DNA of 63,284 bases, counting the filler, from Eubacteriales bacterium (lineage in GTDB: Bacteria; Bacillota; Clostridia; Oscillospirales; CAG-382): NCBI GenBank assembly GCA_045636665.1. It is 9 parts of 9 records of this genome, joined end to end, with 100 filler letters (N's around TTAATTAATTAA, not from the genome) between each part and the next. Parts side by side here need not be neighbours in the genome. Positions count along the whole stretch, not along the records: positions 42,685 to 46,301 come from JAZTXY010000118.1; positions 46,402 to 58,238 come from JAZTXY010000120.1; 7 more parts are not named here. The stretch is one strand, 5' to 3'. The first letter of the stretch is position 1. Every line of letters starts with the position of its first letter. A program made the position numbers. This document shows positions 45,001-54,000 of the stretch, piece by piece.

Positions 45001-48000
45001 ACGTAGGTTCCGCCCTCGCGTTTTACGTAATCAACCTTGGAGGGTACGAGCAATGCGCTGCCGTTGACGTCGAATTTCGACGTGTCTGCGGGAGCCGCCA
45101 CGTCATAGGGAAGCGTCACCATGTGGTTTTCGGCAGTGGTGGTTATTGTGAAATCGGCGTTTGCCTTTTTGGTGGTAACCGTAATGGTATAAACCTCGTT
45201 CGCCTTAAGAGAAGCGGTTATTTCGGAAGAGCCCTTTCTGAGTCTTTCACCATTGTGGAAAATGGCGATTTCCTTTACGTTTTTGGCTTGCAGCTTATAT
45301 TTGTCGGTGTAGGGAGCATAAACGGTATAGGTTCGGGTTCCGTTTTCGTCGGTGAAATCGTCGATGCTCGAAAGACGGAATGCATCACCGATTACAACGT
45401 CGGGCTCGCTCGTTTCGGGCTCGGAGGTATCGTTCGATTCCTCACTTTCGCTCGATTCGCTCGATTCATCCGATTCATCGGATTCACTCGATTCGACAAG
45501 CGTTGATTCGTCGCTCGATTCGGCGTTGGGTGTGCTTTGTTCGCCTTCGGAGGGCGTCGATGAGTTGTCGTGTTGCGAGGCTTCGCTTTCGGTCGTATTC
45601 GATTCGTTAATCGACAAATCGTTTGCGGTTTCTTCGCCGCACGCGACAAACGAAGAAAGAAGCAACAGCGCGGAAATAAGTATTGCAAAACAGCGTTTCA
45701 TAAAAAATCGCTCCTTATTTTGTAATATTCCCTATTATAATATCAAATTGTAATCGATTTGTAAAGTTTTATATTTTAACGAGAAATCGTTATTGACAAA
45801 GCAACGGTGTTTGGTATAATAAAGTTAAGATTGAAAAAGGAGCGTTTTTTATGAACACTTTGATGAAAAAAGGCGTTTTGCTTTATACAAGCTACAACAG
45901 CTACAGTAACACGAAATATTACAATCCGACCGATGACGAGCTTTCACGCCTTCTTGCGGTTACCGATGAAATACTCCTTATACCGATCATTGTGTTTAAC
46001 CGCTTTACCGACCGAAACGGCAACGATGTTGAAATTGTAACCCGTGAAATTATCGATGCAATGACTCCCGATATGGTCGGCGACCCCAACCGCCTGGAAA
46101 CCATTAAAAAGGAATACCACGCGACCGCCGACAAAATTCTTAAGGGCAATTACCACGTTAAGGATTACGTTGCCGATGCGAACGCTTATGCCGAAAGATT
46201 GGTTGCTATCAAAAAGGACGTGAAAATTTGGTTTTCGGTGCCCATGTGCGAATGCTGGCACGCGCTTACACATCTTTTCGCTTCCGCTTGGGCAGATACA
46301 GNNNNNNNNNNNNNNNNNNNNNNNNNNNNNNNNNNNNNNNNNNNNTTAATTAATTAANNNNNNNNNNNNNNNNNNNNNNNNNNNNNNNNNNNNNNNNNNN
46401 NGTAATATTTGCTTTAATTCTTAAATTACGTACCGTTTCGCCAATCTGTAAATTCATAATAATCTCCGTTGTTTTATTTTGTAGCTATGTAATAATTATA
46501 TTATTTAGATCGTTGTATGTCAACGGACCTATTTGTAGATGAAAATTTAATCAACTGTTTAGAAAAAAGAGGAATTGCTCGTATATGAACAATTCCTCTT
46601 TTATAGTTGTTTGCGGTTTTGATTATGATCTTTCGGCTATAATGTCCATCATTTCGCCAACGTTTTTCATTGCGCTGACTTCTTTCATAGTAAACTTTAC
46701 ACCGAATTCGCGTTCAACTGCCGCGATAAGACGAATGTGCTCGAGACTGTCCCAATCTTCAATATCGTCAGCGGTGGTTTCACGATCAACGGTGATATCT
46801 TCGTCATCAAAAACGTTTTGGAATACTTCGTTGAGTCTTTCGTTAATGTTTTGTGCCATAATTTATTCCTCCGGATTAACTTTAATTACGTTGTTTTTGT
46901 TTTGATAATCGGTAACAGAAAGCTTCCATTCGGTCGTGCCGTCTTCGCCTTCGAATGTTTTTTCAAAACCGAAATCATTAAAGAGGTTTTTGACCATTCC
47001 GTTCTTTGCGGTGGGGTAGTAGTGACCTATTATTGTGTCAATCGACCTATCTTTGCACTCTTTTACAAGAGTATCAAGCATTGCATATTCCATATTCTTT
47101 TTAAGAACACGGCAGCTCATAAGCCAAAGGTCGATATCGCAAATATTTTCTTTGATTTCGCCGATAACAACCGAAACAACACCGTTGTCGCCAAACGCAT
47201 CGGAAAGCTTGCCGTAAAGAGTAATATGATTGCCGTCGGTAGCAACCGATTCGATTTCGGGTTGAGTATAGCGTTTTGTGGTAAGATTGAACTGGTTAGA
47301 TTTGTTGGTCAATTGGGTAATTCGTTGCATATAAACGGGCGAAAACGGTTTAATCTCGCCTTTCATATCCAAGCTCAAAAGATATTCTGTATAATCGGCA
47401 AATTCTGTTGAAAGCTCTGCGCGTTTAACGTTTGCTTTATACATATCGTTGCGCTTTAAGTCGTCTGCAGAGAAGTTTGTGACCTCGAAATATCCGTTTC
47501 TGTCGATCGTGCGAATATAATCGGCAGGTACGTCAAACAAAGGTATTGCGATGCCTTTTATACTGCGTTCAACAAGTGCGCGTTCTGTGGGGTTATCATC
47601 GGCAAAGACGAACGAATCGATTCCAAGATCCATTTCGTTTGCGGTAGCAACAAGGTTTCTGTCCTTAGTTTCCCAATTTGCCTTGATAACAATAAAGTCA
47701 TCGGGACGAAGCACTCCTTCGGGGTGATTAAGACCTGCGATTGCGTTTTCGTGATCGTTTTTCGAAGCAACAGTCAGCATAATACCAATGCTTTTTTGTT
47801 TTTTAACGTATTCCTGAAATGCTTTGTAACATTCGGAAGTCGCTGTTTCTTCGCCGATTTCAATTCCTTCAACTCCGTCATCGCCAACGACGCCACCCCA
47901 AAGAGTATTGTCGAGGTCGAGCGCTAAAACCTTTTTGTTTTTGCCGAAGATGGATTTGATAATATTCGAAAGGTTCTTTGTAACGTAAGGAACCGCATCA

Positions 48001-51000: not shown

Positions 51001-54000
51001 ATGAGGATTGAACCTGAAATTTCGGCAAGTCCGCCGCCCTGTTCGGGCACGGTTTCTTCGGGTTGGGAGTTGATTTCTGGTTCGGATTCATCGGGGATGA
51101 AGCTGCTTTCCGGAGCTTCGGAGGAATAATCCGAAGAGGTGCTGTTTTCAACCTGCGAGCTTTCCGTTTCGGCGGAAGTGTCATCGGTTACGGATTGCTC
51201 TTGGTCGGGTTCGGATTCTTCGGGTCGGATGGTTATGATTTTTTCTTCTTCTTCCAAACCGTAAAGACCGTTGATTTTGGTTTCAAAGTCTACAAAGGTA
51301 TCGCGTCCGAAAATAGTATCGGAAAAGTAGTCGCTTATGCCCTTGAAATACTTACCCGAAAACAGTGAATCAAAAGAAAATTCAGGCCATTCCTTTAAGG
51401 TTGTATAGTTCGATTCGGTTTCTCTCGGAAGAAATACACAGAAAACGAACATAAATAAAAGCGTTAAGGCTAAAAGTATAGCGCATAATTTAATTGTGAA
51501 ATTTTTCATAAGTTATCACCTAAAAGTTCCAATAGAGGAAAGGATTATTGCTGCTGAATGTTTTTACAAGAACGCTTGTGTTGATAAACAAAAGTAATAT
51601 TGCCAAAACAGTTGCAGTTATAATGCCGATCGAGTATACCATCGGGCTTGAATTTTCGAAGCGCTTTTTGAGATAAGGAATAATGGGGAAACAAGCGATA
51701 AGTGCGATTGAGAATATAAAGACGTTGGTAGTAACTACCGTGAAAAAGTCATCGTTATACAGAACGTTGCCGTTAGCGCCTACGAGATTTTTGAAGAAGT
51801 TGATAAGGTCGCTTGAATTTTCAAACTTAAAAATACCGAAACCGATAAGTATTACAAGCTTGTTGTAAATATGCATTAATACAGTCGGCGCGTTTTTAAG
51901 TCGCTTTTTGCCGAGTAACGTTTCAATGTAAATGAATACACCGAAATAGAGACCCCAAATTACATAGTTCCAGCTTGCACCGTGCCAAAGTCCGGTTGTA
52001 AACCAAACGAGGAACAACGACAAAACAGCACGTCTTTTGCCAAAAATGGGCAGATATAACAAATAGTCGCGGAAGAAGCTGCCAAGCGAAATGTGCCATC
52101 TTTGCCAAAATTCAGAAATTGAACGGCACATAAAGGGATGCTTGAAGTTTTCGTCAAAGTGGAATCCGAACACTCTACCGATACCGATTGCCATATCCGA
52201 ATAACCCGAGAAGTCAAAATAAACCTGCATCGAATAAGCAATGACGCCGAACCAAGTAGCGGCAACAGATGCCTCGGATACGTTTGTGCCAAAACATTTT
52301 TCGACAATCAAATTAAGATTGTTTGCCAAAAGAACCTTTTTGGAAAGACCGATAACGATACGCAAACCGCCTTCCATTGCGTCCTTAAAAGTGGTTGTGC
52401 GGTTATCGATTTCATCTGCAATTGTTTGATAACGGACTATCGGGCCTGCAACCAATTGCGGGAAAAGAGAGATGTATAACAGTAATTTATGAAAATGCTT
52501 TTGAACAGGAACCTTTTCCCAATATACGTCGATCATATAGGACATAATTTGGAAGGTATAGAAGCTTATACCAAGCGGCAAAGCGAGCTTGAGAAGCGGT
52601 ATCGAGGCACCGAAAATGCCATTAATATTGCCGATAATAAAGTCGGTATATTTAAACAAACCAAGCATGCCTATATTGTAAATCAGCGAAATAACCATCG
52701 CCAGCTTACAGTTTTTCGTGCCGCGGGATTTGTCCATCCACAATGCAAGGAAATAGTTGATCGCCGCACTTGCGATGAACAGCAGGATTTTAATCGGCTC
52801 GCCGCAAGCATAAAAGATTAAAGAGAATACGATAAGTACCCAGTTTTTGACCTTTAAGCTTTTGAATAAAAAGTAAAACAAAAAGCATAAAGGCAAAAAC
52901 GCAAACATAAAGAATAAATCTGCAAAAATCATAATTAATTCCTCGTGATTTTGTTAAAGTATATATCTGTTAATTTGATTGTTTTGTTTGATTGTTAACC
53001 TTCGATGAAAGGATACAGTTGATTTCGGCGCCTATAAACATAATATACATACAAATATACAACCACAGCATTAAAACTATAATGGCGGTTAATGAACCGT
53101 ATACGTTGGCATAGTTGCTAAAATTGTCAACATAAAATGAAAATAGAATCGAAAACGAAACCCATCCTGCGCCTGAAATAACTGCGCCCGGAATTTGGTC
53201 TAAAATTTTCATTTTTTTGCAGGGCATACTTTTGTATATGATCGAGAAAAACAAAACAAGTATTATAAATCCTAAAATGAAACGCAGGGAGGAGATGATA
53301 TAAACTAATCCTTTTAGGTTTGGGAAGAAGGAGTTCGCAAGATTAATAAGCGAGTCGCCGAAAACCATAATAAGCAAAACTCCGCACACGATGACGATAA
53401 AAGCGAGCGTGTAAATGATGGAAAGAAAACGTACCCAAAGGTATTTTCTTGTTTCTTTGATTTCGTAAACAGAGTTTAAACCGCCCATAATTGCGTGAAC
53501 ACCGCGCGAGGCTGACCATAGCAACAAAGCTGCCGAGATGATGGTGTGGGTTAATCTTCCCTCGGAAAGTATTTCTTCAATGAAATCGTTTATAAATTCT
53601 CCCAAAACGCCTGGCATTACCTCGCTTATTGTTTTGGTAATTGCCTCGCCCGTATCGCCGAACAGCTGCAGCAACGATAAAAGCAACATTATAAGAGGAA
53701 TCAGAGAGAGAAACATAAAGTATGCGGTTTGCGCCGAATAAGCACTGATTCTGCTTGCTGAAACCTTGCGCAGAAAGTAACGGGTGCTTTTGATTAGCCG
53801 TTGCATACGTTCTCTCCTTTCCGAAAAATATGCGATTGACTTGCATAACGGCGTGTGTTATAATTACGGCATAATAAACTTGAGGTGTTGATTGTGCATA
53901 GTTTTAACAGCCGTTTTTTGGAAGACGAATTGATAGAGCGCTGGGATGAATTCACGTCTCCTGCGCGTTTTGCAGGCGCAGATGAAATGATGGATTTGAT

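Follow-up and report, generated by a model that had tools for sequence, protein, structure and literature searches.

A putative carrier-protein-dependent MBOAT-SGNH acyl shuttle for the cell envelope of a gut Clostridia bacterium

Gene content and boundaries of the operon

Why would an MBOAT acyltransferase and two SGNH-type partners share an operon with an FkbH-like loader and an acyl carrier protein (ACP)? The question is raised by a five-gene operon of a gut Clostridia bacterium (assembly GCA_045636665.1), located in a window of 63,284 nucleotides, by which we mean the whole stretch of DNA analysed, several contigs joined by N spacers. Each of the five co-directional minus-strand genes named in the survey's finding was recovered; they are tightly packed and intact, with all catalytic and signature residues conserved. 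The features are listed here by coordinates.

46562..46603, minus strand: intrinsic terminator closing the operon; 16-bp stem, then UUUUUUCU; -23.7 kcal/mol, z -7.19
46623..46859, minus strand: dedicated carrier protein (ACP), 78 aa; PF00550 24.8 bits (cut-off 20.8)
46863..48650, minus strand: FkbH-like loader (FkbH), 595 aa; TIGR01686 261.5 bits (cut-off 146.65), TIGR01681 (HAD-IIIC) 61 bits, PF21211 (FkbH_N) 64.2 bits
48661..50085, minus strand: DHHW_B, second DHHW paralog, 474 aa; PF14286 96.1 bits, YbbR 30.8 bits, ALGX 30.5 bits
50088..51509, minus strand: DHHW_A, PatB1-type SGNH acyltransferase, 473 aa; PF14286 201.1 bits over the full profile
51520..52932, minus strand: MBOAT, PatA-type with a fused acyl-shuttle motif, 470 aa; PF03062 76.5 bits
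52970..53806, minus strand: BrkB/YihY-family membrane protein; PF03631 205.5 bits

The survey had placed the end of the MBOAT gene at 52881; the open reading frame actually starts 51 nt farther, at 52932, and relatives conserve the N-terminal residues thus added: M1 is present in at least 90% of rows, and F8 does not vary across 24 rows. It had also raised the concern that the cluster might run past the contig end. That concern is settled by a 16-bp hairpin with a 6-nt loop and a U-run, located approximately 20 nt past the ACP stop codon and equalled in none of 200 shuffles, together with the convergent typA/bipA that is the next gene after the ACP in relatives with long contigs (L002 and L007). 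The consensus terminator scan, whose loop limit of 3-8 the hairpin satisfies, missed it, probably because the scan demands three G-C pairs in the stem. Directly upstream of the MBOAT, after a 37-nt gap, lies the BrkB/YihY gene, which may be co-transcribed with the operon and is outside the conserved core; tblastn placed it upstream in 13 of 18 type-1 loci (see below) and did not detect it in L018, L022, L025, L028 and L032. No glycan- or polysaccharide-synthesis gene pointing to an acceptor adjoins the operon, no modifier gene lies in it, and no potential consumer of glyceryl-ACP (KS, FabH-like enzyme, dehydrogenases or C domain) is encoded within or beside it.

The loader and its carrier protein

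FkbH consists of three domains: an SGNH/flavodoxin-like FkbH_N domain, an HAD-IIIC phosphatase and, at the C-terminus, a GNAT-like domain bearing an SCR motif. It matches 3SLR, the N-terminal part of BF1531, both by sequence (E 1.5e-52) and by Foldseek (E 4.6e-26); the AF2 model has a pLDDT of 82.9, and a part of approximately 160 residues matches GNAT acetyltransferases in Foldseek at E ~1e-6. The invariance of the DxDxT and SCR motifs described in the survey holds in 23 of 23 sequences, across which D245/D247/T249, S296/K297, K323, D351/D352 and S512/C513/R514 are all unchanged. Full-length orthologs (at least 698 bits) are present in 15 of 151 sampled genomes of the order, own genome included, in keeping with the 15 of 150 given earlier, and any match at E<=1e-20 in 24 of the 151. 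The ACP scores 16-30 bits against NCBIfam ACP models, under their cut-offs; its phosphopantetheine site is Ser38 (W36-D37-S38), and all three of these residues are invariant (22/22). The genome encodes three carrier proteins, that of the operon being one of them, and two PPTases.

The MBOAT and the two DHHW proteins

The MBOAT's C-terminus, FLYWNF, matches the FXYXXF acyl-shuttle pattern, and H317 (W-H-G) and H280 (R-W-H), both invariant in 24 of 24 rows, align with DltB, H317 falling on DltB H336. Against TIGR04091 (DltB) the MBOAT scores 149.3 bits, below the cut-off of 375, and a paralog on contig C86 scores 162.4 bits, which confirms that the operon's MBOAT is, as had been noted, no more DltB-like than the paralog; DltB similarity does not discriminate carrier-linked from carrier-less MBOATs. 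This paralog belongs to the MBOAT-DHHW-AlgX set that the survey had reported as a second one, lacking FkbH and ACP (found at C86:65611-69606), and it keeps the motif PLGGNR. The operon's MBOAT shares 41-42% identity with this carrier-less paralog and 25-31% with the MBOATs of the T2 and T4 architectures described below; as it is closer overall to the former, carrier-linked MBOATs are not one clade.

The ALGX Pfam model matches both DHHW proteins. DHHW_A is membrane-anchored, with an N-terminal hydrophobic helix and a Ser/Glu-rich linker, and matches 4NZK, a DHHW protein of E. siraeum (E 2.4e-59), and B. cereus PatB1, 5V8D (E 6.7e-9); its D271, H273, W274, S410 and D430 are invariant across 16 DHHW sequences. 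The D-x-H-W, Ser and Asp columns are also present in DHHW_B, which is 38-39% identical to DHHW_A, has a YbbR domain and a linker rich in Ser, Thr and Glu, and is probably a lipoprotein, judging from its LIAC lipobox. The 18 type-1 loci with the MBOAT in view include 15 that have two DHHW genes. An excerpt of PMC9487903 describes DHHW proteins as the PatB1 family, secondary-cell-wall-polysaccharide acetyltransferases that work with the MBOAT PatA1.

Linkage of loader and carrier to MBOATs in relatives

Linkage was counted in 37 related FkbH loci, with downstream DNA in view for 36, and the ACP directly follows FkbH in 31 of these 36. Of the 37, 23 show an MBOAT; in 8 more the contig ends first, 7 of those having a DHHW gene. 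The survey had linked FkbH-ACP to DHHW or MBOAT genes in two gene orders; further orders with non-orthologous outside partners were found, and FkbH and ACP now stand beside an MBOAT in at least four architectures with three kinds of extracytoplasmic partner. The first (T1, 18 loci) is MBOAT-DHHW(x1-2)-FkbH-ACP, and its variant T1' (L054, same genus) is MBOAT-DHHW-DHHW-ACP with FkbH 3.5 kb away. T2 (5 loci) is FkbH-ACP-(MaoC or VOC)-MBOAT-354-aa protein, the MaoC/VOC gene being absent in L026 and L033; the best structural matches of the 354-aa partner are to DltD but weak (6PFX, E 1.8e-3, none at or below 1e-3; model pLDDT 67), and in the Atlas it matches SGNH/GDSL-named clusters at 0.98. T4, seen in three genomes of three families with the ACP seen in two, is MBOAT-(DltD-like domain + CE4 deacetylase)-ACP-short FkbH, and hhalign relates its N-domain to the T2 partner (86%, E 5e-6). 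The constant set is thus a loader, a carrier, an MBOAT and an outside partner of hydrolase fold, and no KS, FabH, condensation or methoxymalonyl enzyme accompanies it in the four architectures.

The T2 and T4 relatives lie amid glycosyltransferase, capsule and CE4 deacetylase genes, and an iPGM gene adjoins two T4 clusters. Modifier genes lie between carrier and MBOAT in several relatives, namely a MaoC dehydratase plus aldo-keto reductase in L036 and L037, a VOC/glyoxalase protein in L035 and MaoC with an SDR in L049 and L050, which shows that some lineages edit the unit bound to the carrier. Six of the 37 loci have room for an MBOAT and show none (L023, L024, L027, L029-L031); for the five of these in which no ACP adjoins FkbH, same-subfamily carrier proteins occur elsewhere, beside GDSL-type proteins or other enzymes, so MBOATs are not the sole associates of this FkbH/ACP family. 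Classical FkbH clusters also occur in the order (L060, L062) and are quite different in appearance.

The predicted docking site and the PLGGNR motif

The model of the MBOAT-ACP complex reached an ipSAE of 0.63 (runs 0.65, 0.63 and 0.63), against 0.00 for the best of three controls; 116 of 157 solved complexes attained this mark, as did 2 of 215 mismatched pairs. Contacts agree between the runs to at least 97% (partner pLDDT 84), and the modelled interface joins ACP residues 34-46, including Ser38, to MBOAT residues 138, 140, 273, 288-306 and 338-343, an arrangement that may be an echo of DltB structures already solved (6BUG and its relatives).

Inside this modelled interface, at residues 295-301, the MBOAT reads PIFGKRR where carrier-less MBOATs read PLGGNR. 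At the same site the T2 MBOATs have a Lys-rich insertion of 16-21 residues, the T4 MBOATs read FGDR, FGNG or FGDG, and DltB reads KVFKNRN plus a 7-residue insertion. Sampling of the order gave 40 MBOAT loci. PLGG[NS]R occurs in 33 of them (30 exact, 3 with one change), and neither ACP nor FkbH was found within 7.5 kb of these 33, PF00550 matching none of 140 small ORFs. Among the seven without the motif, four have FkbH and ACP, one has AMP-binding, GNAT and PP-binding genes and one has an AMP-binding gene with an unassigned 102-aa ORF; six therefore adjoin a carrier-loading enzyme, and the exception, L104, has no carrier nearby. One T1 member, L025, retains GG (GGKI). These sequence comparisons support the view that loss of PLGGNR tracks carrier linkage, an association drawn from few independent lineages (T1, T2, T4, AMP-binding type and DltB), and we infer that the motif serves CoA binding.

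Proposed pathway and alternative explanations

We consider it probable (roughly 60%) that the operon encodes a carrier-protein-dependent MBOAT-SGNH acyl shuttle by which a glycopolymer of the cell envelope is esterified with an acyl group derived from glycerate. FkbH would take 1,3-bisphosphoglycerate from glycolysis, its HAD domain would remove the phosphate and, on family precedent, glyceroyl would be moved via the conserved Cys513 to the phosphopantetheine arm at Ser38 of the ACP. Glyceroyl-ACP, the predicted donor, would dock at the cytoplasmic face of the MBOAT, where His317 would catalyse transfer to Tyr467 of the C-terminal FLYWNF at the outer face. By analogy with PatA/PatB, PatA1/PatB1 and Dlt, the DHHW proteins would then accept the acyl group of acyl-Tyr on their catalytic Ser and esterify the wall polymer; the membrane-anchored DHHW_A and the putative lipoprotein DHHW_B may form a relay or act on two positions. 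The precedent of other FkbH proteins points to glyceroyl as the acyl group, and analogy likewise suggests a cell-surface polymer as the acceptor. The Dlt-like logic proposed in the survey, with FkbH loading the ACP and MBOAT and DHHW proteins transferring the unit, withstood the tests applied here and gains support from the added gene orders, the complex model and the loss of PLGGNR. Our literature searches found no paper describing FkbH/carrier-fed MBOAT-SGNH envelope acylation; if true, this would be the second known pathway of its kind, after D-alanylation of teichoic acids.

It is possible, but unlikely, that the MBOAT and the two DHHW proteins are an ordinary acetyl-CoA-dependent O-acetyltransferase like PatA1/PatB1, and that FkbH-ACP supplies glyceryl-ACP to some unrelated product, sharing no more than location or regulation with them. 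The fused FXYXXF is typical of acetyl-CoA-using PatA-type enzymes, and the identity of the MBOAT to its carrier-less paralog and the occurrence of same-subfamily FkbH/ACP pairs away from MBOATs would fit, as would the statement in an excerpt of PMC12148441, where FXYXXF is the acyl-Tyr shuttle, that MBOAT/SGNH pathways other than Dlt have no carrier protein. However, no consumer of glyceryl-ACP of the kinds named above lies in or beside the operon, which is delimited by a terminator and by a housekeeping gene in convergent orientation, and the linkage recurs in four architectures, with long and short FkbH and three kinds of outside partner; in L054 the ACP even stays with MBOAT-DHHW-DHHW though FkbH is 3.5 kb off. 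Moreover, PLGGNR is kept in 33 of 33 sampled carrier-less MBOATs but lost in this one. We give a similarly low chance to a machinery that works as proposed with an acyl group other than plain glyceroyl, either another small phosphorylated hydroxy-acid or one altered by an enzyme encoded elsewhere. The modifier genes of relatives favour such a unit, as does the extra FkbH_N domain here, given that a table in PMC3679948 includes short forms (~367 aa) among characterised FkbH proteins; the operon itself has no modifier gene, its HAD and SCR motifs are fully conserved, its TIGR01686 score is far over the cut-off, and the iPGM beside two T4 clusters fits a phosphoglycerate-derived unit.

Transfer of the acyl group to a membrane lipid, a lipoteichoic-acid anchor, a surface protein or some further target that is not a glycopolymer appears more improbable still. 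MBOATs of other organisms do acylate lipids and proteins, DHHW_B carries a YbbR domain, and no polysaccharide-synthesis gene flanks the operon. Against this, all characterised bacterial MBOAT-SGNH pairs with FXYXXF act on an envelope polymer, according to the excerpt of PMC12148441, DHHW proteins belong to a polysaccharide acetyltransferase family (PMC9487903), and the T2 and T4 relatives have the glycan-related surroundings noted above.

Comparison with known systems

The proposed system combines the donor logic of Dlt with the shuttle and transferase hardware of PatA1/PatB1, FkbH replacing DltA, so that "Dlt-like" refers to a mode of working, not to family membership. Identity with a Dlt operon is rejected, as the operon lacks DltA and any DltB, DltC or DltD equivalog, and the genome (80% completeness) has no DltA above the cut-off and no DltD match. 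Like Dlt, it is predicted to load a small acyl group in the cytoplasm onto a dedicated carrier protein, to transfer it across the membrane by an MBOAT with a conserved His and to use an FXYXXF tyrosine and then an SGNH-fold transferase; DltB also lacks PLGGNR at the modelled docking site. Unlike the adenylating enzyme of Dlt, the loader here is an HAD phosphatase with a GNAT-like domain, and the acyl group is probably a hydroxy-acid rather than an amino acid, so no positive charge would be added. In addition, FXYXXF is fused to the MBOAT rather than carried by the DltX microprotein, and the outside transferases are DHHW proteins rather than DltD.

PatA1/PatB1, responsible for secondary cell wall polysaccharide O-acetylation in the Bacillus cereus group, and the predicted CcsH/CcsI of Clostridia share with the operon a C-terminally fused FXYXXF MBOAT, DHHW SGNH partner(s) and a Gram-positive envelope. 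However, these systems have no carrier or loader and are taken as acetyl-CoA users, whereas the operon has FkbH and ACP, PIFGKRR for PLGGNR and two DHHW paralogs. Glyceryl-ACP loaders of the FkbH type that serve polyketide, tetronate or NRPS biosynthesis (FK520 methoxymalonyl-ACP, tetronates, the suomilide loading module) resemble it in an FkbH above the curated cut-off, intact HAD motifs and an adjoining stand-alone ACP, but the operon has no PKS, NRPS, FabH-like enzyme, dehydrogenases or O-methyltransferase, and its predicted consumer is an MBOAT with an envelope role, not a secondary metabolite pathway. Alginate O-acetylation by AlgI/AlgJ/AlgF/AlgX differs in being Gram-negative and periplasmic, with an acetyl donor and no carrier protein; it likewise pairs one MBOAT with two SGNH-like proteins outside the membrane, which act as a relay, and is a possible model for DHHW_A and DHHW_B.

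Operon organization and boundaries

The operon comprises five consecutive ORFs on the minus strand, separated by intergenic gaps of 2-10 nt:

51520-52932, minus strand: MBOAT, 470 aa (PF03062, 76.5 bits)
50088-51509, minus strand: DHHW_A, 473 aa (PF14286, 201.1 bits; cut-off 25)
48661-50085, minus strand: DHHW_B, 474 aa, with a YbbR domain (PF14286, 96.1 bits; cut-off 25)
46863-48650, minus strand: FkbH, the loader, 595 aa (TIGR01686, 261.5 bits, cut-off 146.65; HAD-IIIC, 61; FkbH_N, 64.2 bits)
46623-46859, minus strand: ACP, the carrier protein, 78 aa (PP-binding, 24.8 bits)

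The five-gene cluster reported in the survey's finding is present, and its Pfam and NCBIfam scores were reproduced for all five proteins; its upper boundary required correction, as the MBOAT start lies at 52932, 51 nt past the end previously assigned, with first residues that are conserved in relatives. The contig bearing the operon begins at window position 46402, which had raised the concern that the cluster continues past the contig end. Two features settle that concern and place the end of the operon at ACP: a 16-bp hairpin with a U-run directly 3' of the stop codon of ACP (-23.7 kcal/mol, z -7.19), a real hairpin that the terminator scan overlooked, and the convergent typA/bipA gene that comes next after ACP where the contigs of relatives are long. 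The promoter scan was uninformative, since it returned 17 sites versus 19.2 expected. A BrkB/YihY gene lies 37 nt upstream of MBOAT; it was rejected as a core component because tblastn found no upstream match in 5 of the 18 loci that share the window's gene order (MBOAT, one or two DHHW genes, FkbH, ACP; hereafter T1).

By Pfam, the neighboring genes of the operon gave no clue to the acceptor polymer. A 383-aa beta-propeller protein (PQQ_2/BamB-like; 55873-57024, plus strand) is encoded a few genes away and has no evident link to the operon. The window was put together artificially from separate contigs, with runs of N around the ttaattaattaa linker at 46302-46401 and ~58290, and features are not continuous across these joins.

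The FkbH loader and its carrier protein

FkbH scored above its family cut-off and has intact HAD motifs I-IV. The HAD motif residues (D245-x-D247-x-T249, S296/K297, K323 and D351/D352) and an S512-C513-R514 motif are invariant in all 23 FkbH relatives compared. The protein has three domains, with residues 24-395 matching the N-terminal part of Bacteroides fragilis BF1531 (3SLR, E 1.5e-52), a match also obtained with the AlphaFold model (pLDDT 82.9; E 4.6e-26). Approximately 160 residues of the model match GNAT acetyltransferases (E ~1e-6), and the C-terminal domain with the conserved Cys is predicted to fold like GNAT; Cys513 is presumably the residue carrying the glyceryl group. The ACP gene begins 4 nt after the FkbH stop and encodes a stand-alone carrier in which W36-D37-S38 is invariant (22 of 22 sequences). 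The genome (1.82 Mb, 80% complete) encodes two further carrier proteins and two phosphopantetheinyl transferases.

The precedent for FkbH loaders is the conversion of 1,3-bisphosphoglycerate to glyceryl-ACP (PMC7489565, PMC13122637). Unlike the FkbH loaders of natural-product clusters, the window FkbH lies outside any PKS, NRPS, tetronate or methoxymalonyl cluster, and no such enzymes were found in the window contig or the T1 loci. Classical methoxymalonyl-type sets (short FkbH, 3-hydroxyacyl-CoA dehydrogenase, ACP) occur in the same order at L060:8266-11617 and L062:6866-16860, two loci of relatives; an acyl-CoA dehydrogenase is present only in the former, while the latter adds an acyltransferase-domain protein and a 6.2-kb ORF. 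These sets, which differ in look from the window operon, are probably natural-product clusters of gut Oscillospirales.

Two full-length FkbH orthologs in sampled genomes carry one in-frame stop each (G152:C31:12359-14122, TGA; G128:C160:354-2108, TAG), possibly as pseudogenes or assembly errors. On contig C41 of the window's own genome (L039:9-1713), an AMP-binding enzyme is encoded directly before a second stand-alone carrier and a response regulator; this enzyme is nearest to fatty-acid CoA ligases (243.9 bits) and is not DltA.

The acyltransferase and its DHHW partners

Alignment of the MBOAT to DltB (6BUG, E 1.4e-20) places H317 of its W-H-G motif, invariant in 24 of 24 rows, on DltB H336. 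The protein ends in FLYWNF, which fits the FXYXXF motif; this motif is strict in 22 of 25 related MBOATs and its Tyr is present in all 25. Both DHHW proteins keep the D-x-H-W block (TDHHW in DHHW_A, TDFHW in DHHW_B), the Ser of the KDSYGN stretch and the D-x-R block, and D271, H273, S410 and D430 are invariant in 16 DHHW sequences. DHHW_A matches 4NZK, a DHHW structure from Eubacterium siraeum (E 2.4e-59), as well as PatB1 of B. cereus (E 6.7e-9). As read from sequence, DHHW_A has an N-terminal membrane helix and DHHW_B a lipoprotein signal (LIAC).

According to one account, PatA uses acetyl-CoA to acetylate the Tyr within its own C-terminal FXYXXF motif, from which PatB then receives the acetyl group; in the D-alanylation (Dlt) pathway the motif belongs to the microprotein DltX, and the carrier protein DltC serves as donor (PMC12148441). 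In excerpts of two other sources, DHHW is the family of PatB1, a secondary-cell-wall-polysaccharide O-acetyltransferase partnered by the MBOAT PatA1 (PMC9487903), and an MBOAT/DHHW pair is predicted for cellulose acetylation in Clostridia (PMC7710045). Against this framework, the fused FXYXXF motif and the DHHW partners indicate hardware of the PatA1/PatB1 type.

The observed genes, residues, motifs and linkage most likely reflect a route from FkbH through ACP, MBOAT and DHHW to a wall polymer, for which we infer the cargo, donor and acceptor. FkbH would make an acyl-ACP, glyceroyl by precedent; MBOAT would shift the acyl group onto Tyr467; and the two DHHW proteins would place it on the wall polymer, either as a relay or on two sites. 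AlgJ and AlgX act as a relay.

Gene linkage among relatives

A one-genome-per-species scan yielded 37 related loci, annotated as Clostridia or other Bacillota except for L010 ("bacterium"), in which all ORFs were searched with profile HMMs. Of the 36 loci with downstream DNA, 31 have ACP directly after FkbH. Of all 37 loci, 23 show an MBOAT; in eight more the contig ends first, with a DHHW gene in seven of these, and the remaining six have room for an MBOAT but contain none. T1 order was observed in 18 loci (two DHHW genes in 15, one in 3). Five loci have a second order (T2), in which FkbH and ACP are followed by MaoC/VOC (missing from L026 and L033), MBOAT and a 354-aa protein. An order-wide sample of 151 genomes, from which the loci of weaker hits were then fetched, gave an FkbH hit in 24 and a full-length ortholog in 15, in agreement with the 15 genomes counted earlier. 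In L054, from the same genus, MBOAT, two DHHW genes and ACP lie together and FkbH is 3.5 kb off.

In the 354-aa T2 partner, an N-terminal helix is accompanied by two blocks, IGxS and DxxHxNxxG, and the protein had no sequence match in Pfam, NCBIfam or PDB; hhalign against DHHW gave a probability of only 2.6%. The nearest Atlas clusters are named SGNH/GDSL hydrolases (0.98), and the best fold matches are to DltD (6PFX, E 1.8e-3, none reaching 1e-3; model pLDDT 67). These weak fold matches, together with the cluster names and motifs, suggest an SGNH/DltD-like protein. A fourth arrangement (T4), consisting of an MBOAT, a protein of ~600 aa, a carrier (seen in two of three) and a short two-domain FkbH, was found in three genomes from three different families:

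L058:5141-9733 (genome G034), T4 locus
L063:4573-9157 (genome G021), T4 locus
L059:4480-9675 (genome G048), T4 locus

By hhalign, the ~600-aa protein resembles the T2 partner in its N-domain (86%, E 5e-6); its C-domain is a PgaB/IcaB-like CE4 deacetylase. This fusion hints that a GlcNAc polymer might be de-N-acetylated and re-acylated in coupled steps. The T4 MBOATs have Asn at the R-W-H position, and an iPGM gene adjoins two of the three clusters. Loader, carrier and MBOAT thus appear together repeatedly, paired with three outside partners that are not orthologous, and no enzyme otherwise able to consume acyl-ACP was found with these recurring sets.

Further arrangements were encountered among the fetched loci. 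L102:6442-11782 and L103:6345-11120 contain an AMP-binding enzyme, in some cases a GNAT protein, a carrier, an MBOAT with a Lys-rich insertion and an unassigned 348-405-aa protein, and may represent a Dlt-like set with another cargo in the same order. In L036:9974-17700 and L037, the series FkbH, ACP, MaoC dehydratase, MBOAT and DltD-like protein continues with an aldo-keto reductase and a transketolase in split form, and Alg14/Alg13-like glycosyltransferase genes lie upstream. In polyketide loading-module chemistry, a dehydratase and a reductase acting on a glyceryl carrier would yield a lactyl-type unit.

Carrier protein or acyl-CoA as donor

Among the points against reading this linkage as a functional pathway are that the window MBOAT does not stand out as a carrier user by overall similarity and that 6 of 37 FkbH loci lack an MBOAT. 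On the DltB equivalog model TIGR04091, the window MBOAT falls below the cut-off (149.3 vs 375 bits) and is outscored by its paralog in the carrier-less MBOAT-DHHW-AlgX set on contig C86 (162.4 bits), so that, as previously noted, it is not more DltB-like than the genome's other MBOAT. DltB similarity was rejected as a marker of carrier use because the carrier-less paralog scores higher. Pairwise identities of the window MBOAT are 41-42% to this paralog and 25-31% to the T2 and T4 MBOATs, and overall MBOAT similarity, judged by sequence, does not tell carrier use. The complex model and an interface motif are more telling. The modeled MBOAT-ACP complex reached an ipSAE of 0.63 (runs of 0.65, 0.63 and 0.63; best of three controls, 0.00), a mark that 116 of 157 solved complexes attain, as do 2 of 215 mismatched pairs. 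At least 97% of contacts are common to the runs (partner pLDDT 84); they join ACP residues 34-46, including Ser38, to MBOAT residues 288-306 and 338-343. Because DltB structures have been solved, this result may reflect DltB likeness rather than binding by this copy.

At the modeled interface, carrier-less MBOATs have Y-x-P-L-G-G-N-R and the window and T1 MBOATs have P-I-F-G-K-R-R (Phe in 15 of 16 rows; GGKI in L025). At this site, T2 MBOATs have a Lys-rich insertion of 16-21 residues, T4 MBOATs have FGDR, FGNG or FGDG, and DltB has KVFKNRN after a 7-residue insertion. To test the motif at loci other than those from which it was drawn, 61 genomes of the order were searched for MBOATs, which were present in 48, and 40 places were sampled with 7.5-kb flanks (37 of the 38 best-scoring matches outside the window's own genome, plus three lower-scoring long ORFs). 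PLGG[NS]R was found in 33 of the 40 MBOATs (30 exact, 3 with one change), a count drawn from relatives that are not independent. HMMs detected no ACP or FkbH within the 7.5-kb flanks of any of these 33; PF00550 (E<=0.01) likewise matched none of 140 small ORFs at the motif loci and one further locus (L104), in a non-overlapping ORF pick that can drop a true carrier. Among the seven MBOATs without the motif, four adjoin FkbH and ACP, one an AMP-binding enzyme with GNAT and PP-binding proteins, one an AMP-binding enzyme and an unassigned 102-aa ORF, and one none of these. PLGGNR may serve in CoA binding.

A capsule-like locus in Lachnospiraceae (L035:3106-21115) contains two Capsule_synth genes, an FkbM methyltransferase, a HAD protein, FkbH-ACP-VOC and three MBOAT paralogs. 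PLGGNR is absent only from the ACP-adjacent MBOAT and is kept in the other two.

Five of the six FkbH loci lacking an MBOAT also lack an adjacent ACP, and the FkbH proteins of four of these five form one clade (support 100/100). All five genomes nevertheless encode carriers of the same subfamily elsewhere (127-138 bits). These carriers are not beside MBOATs; they adjoin GDSL-type proteins with VOC, GtrA or GT2, a second FkbH with MaoC and SDR, or an AMP-binding enzyme. Since same-subfamily carriers lie beside non-MBOAT enzymes, the FkbH/ACP module also appears to serve other transferases. The single clade and the carriers encoded elsewhere partly defuse the five solo loci as evidence against linkage.

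In four regions from these genomes (L044-L047), the carrier has a GDSL-like protein of 369-397 aa on one side and a VOC/glyoxalase on the other, with GtrA, GT2 or DUF6056 adjoining; these sets may constitute an MBOAT-independent, carrier-fed route of glycan acylation.

Significance

Acylation of wall polymers is a means by which bacteria adjust their surfaces; through D-alanylation and O-acetylation they control how well they resist lysozyme, cationic peptides and autolysins. The most far-reaching reading of our results is that gut and rumen Clostridia could hold a broad modular family of carrier-fed MBOAT acyl-shuttles, in which FkbH would divert a glycolytic intermediate into glycerate-derived wall-polymer esters (glyceroyl here; lactyl- or pyruvyl-type with MaoC, reductase or VOC), and that PLGGNR loss could mark carrier-protein versus acyl-CoA donors across bacterial MBOATs; we give this joint reading a probability of roughly 40%. 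If true, it would reveal envelope modification of a class not known before, give FkbH its first role beyond natural-product synthesis and place another carrier-dependent MBOAT pathway, the second, next to Dlt. A hydroxy-acid cargo and a different loader would widen Gram-positive envelope chemistry and bring FkbH into core cell biology, account for orphan "HAD-IIIC phosphatase" genes (at least 7,997 homologs at E<=1e-10) and yield a sequence-based rule, open to testing, for which donor an MBOAT uses. Because the host organisms are abundant gut and rumen commensals, the modification could also bear on phage, host and community interactions.

Since most subscription journals lie outside its scope, the literature search speaks only for the full texts covered. 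In these, FkbH occurred with MBOAT only in cyanobacterial peptide work, where the two act at separate steps, and had no match with polysaccharide and glyceryl or with capsule. Matches for FkbH and "cell wall" were all natural-product work by title or abstract, and a search for MBOAT, "acyl carrier protein" and SGNH returned only a cellulose review.

Comparison with known systems

The current view, as given in one account, is that among MBOAT-SGNH systems only Dlt uses a carrier protein (PMC12148441). The conserved His, C-terminal FXYXXF motif and adjacent SGNH-fold transferase of PatA/PatB-type systems are all found in the window operon. Those systems are taken to use acyl-CoA and no carrier; the operon has a carrier and loader, has lost PLGGNR and shows modeled ACP docking. 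The added loader and carrier resemble Dlt in gene content. In contrast to the DltD and separate DltX of that pathway, the operon has DHHW proteins and an FXYXXF motif fused to the MBOAT. The operon has no AMP-binding gene, and in the 80% complete genome the best match to the DltA model TIGR01734 reaches 126 vs 559.85 bits and PF04914 (DltD) has no match. The ACP carries the DSL serine and matches only generic ACP models, all below cut-off, with no DltC model among the 10 matches listed. We file the cluster as an MBOAT-SGNH acyl-shuttle system that would be Dlt-like in its working without being a member of Dlt, with a loader borrowed from polyketide biochemistry.
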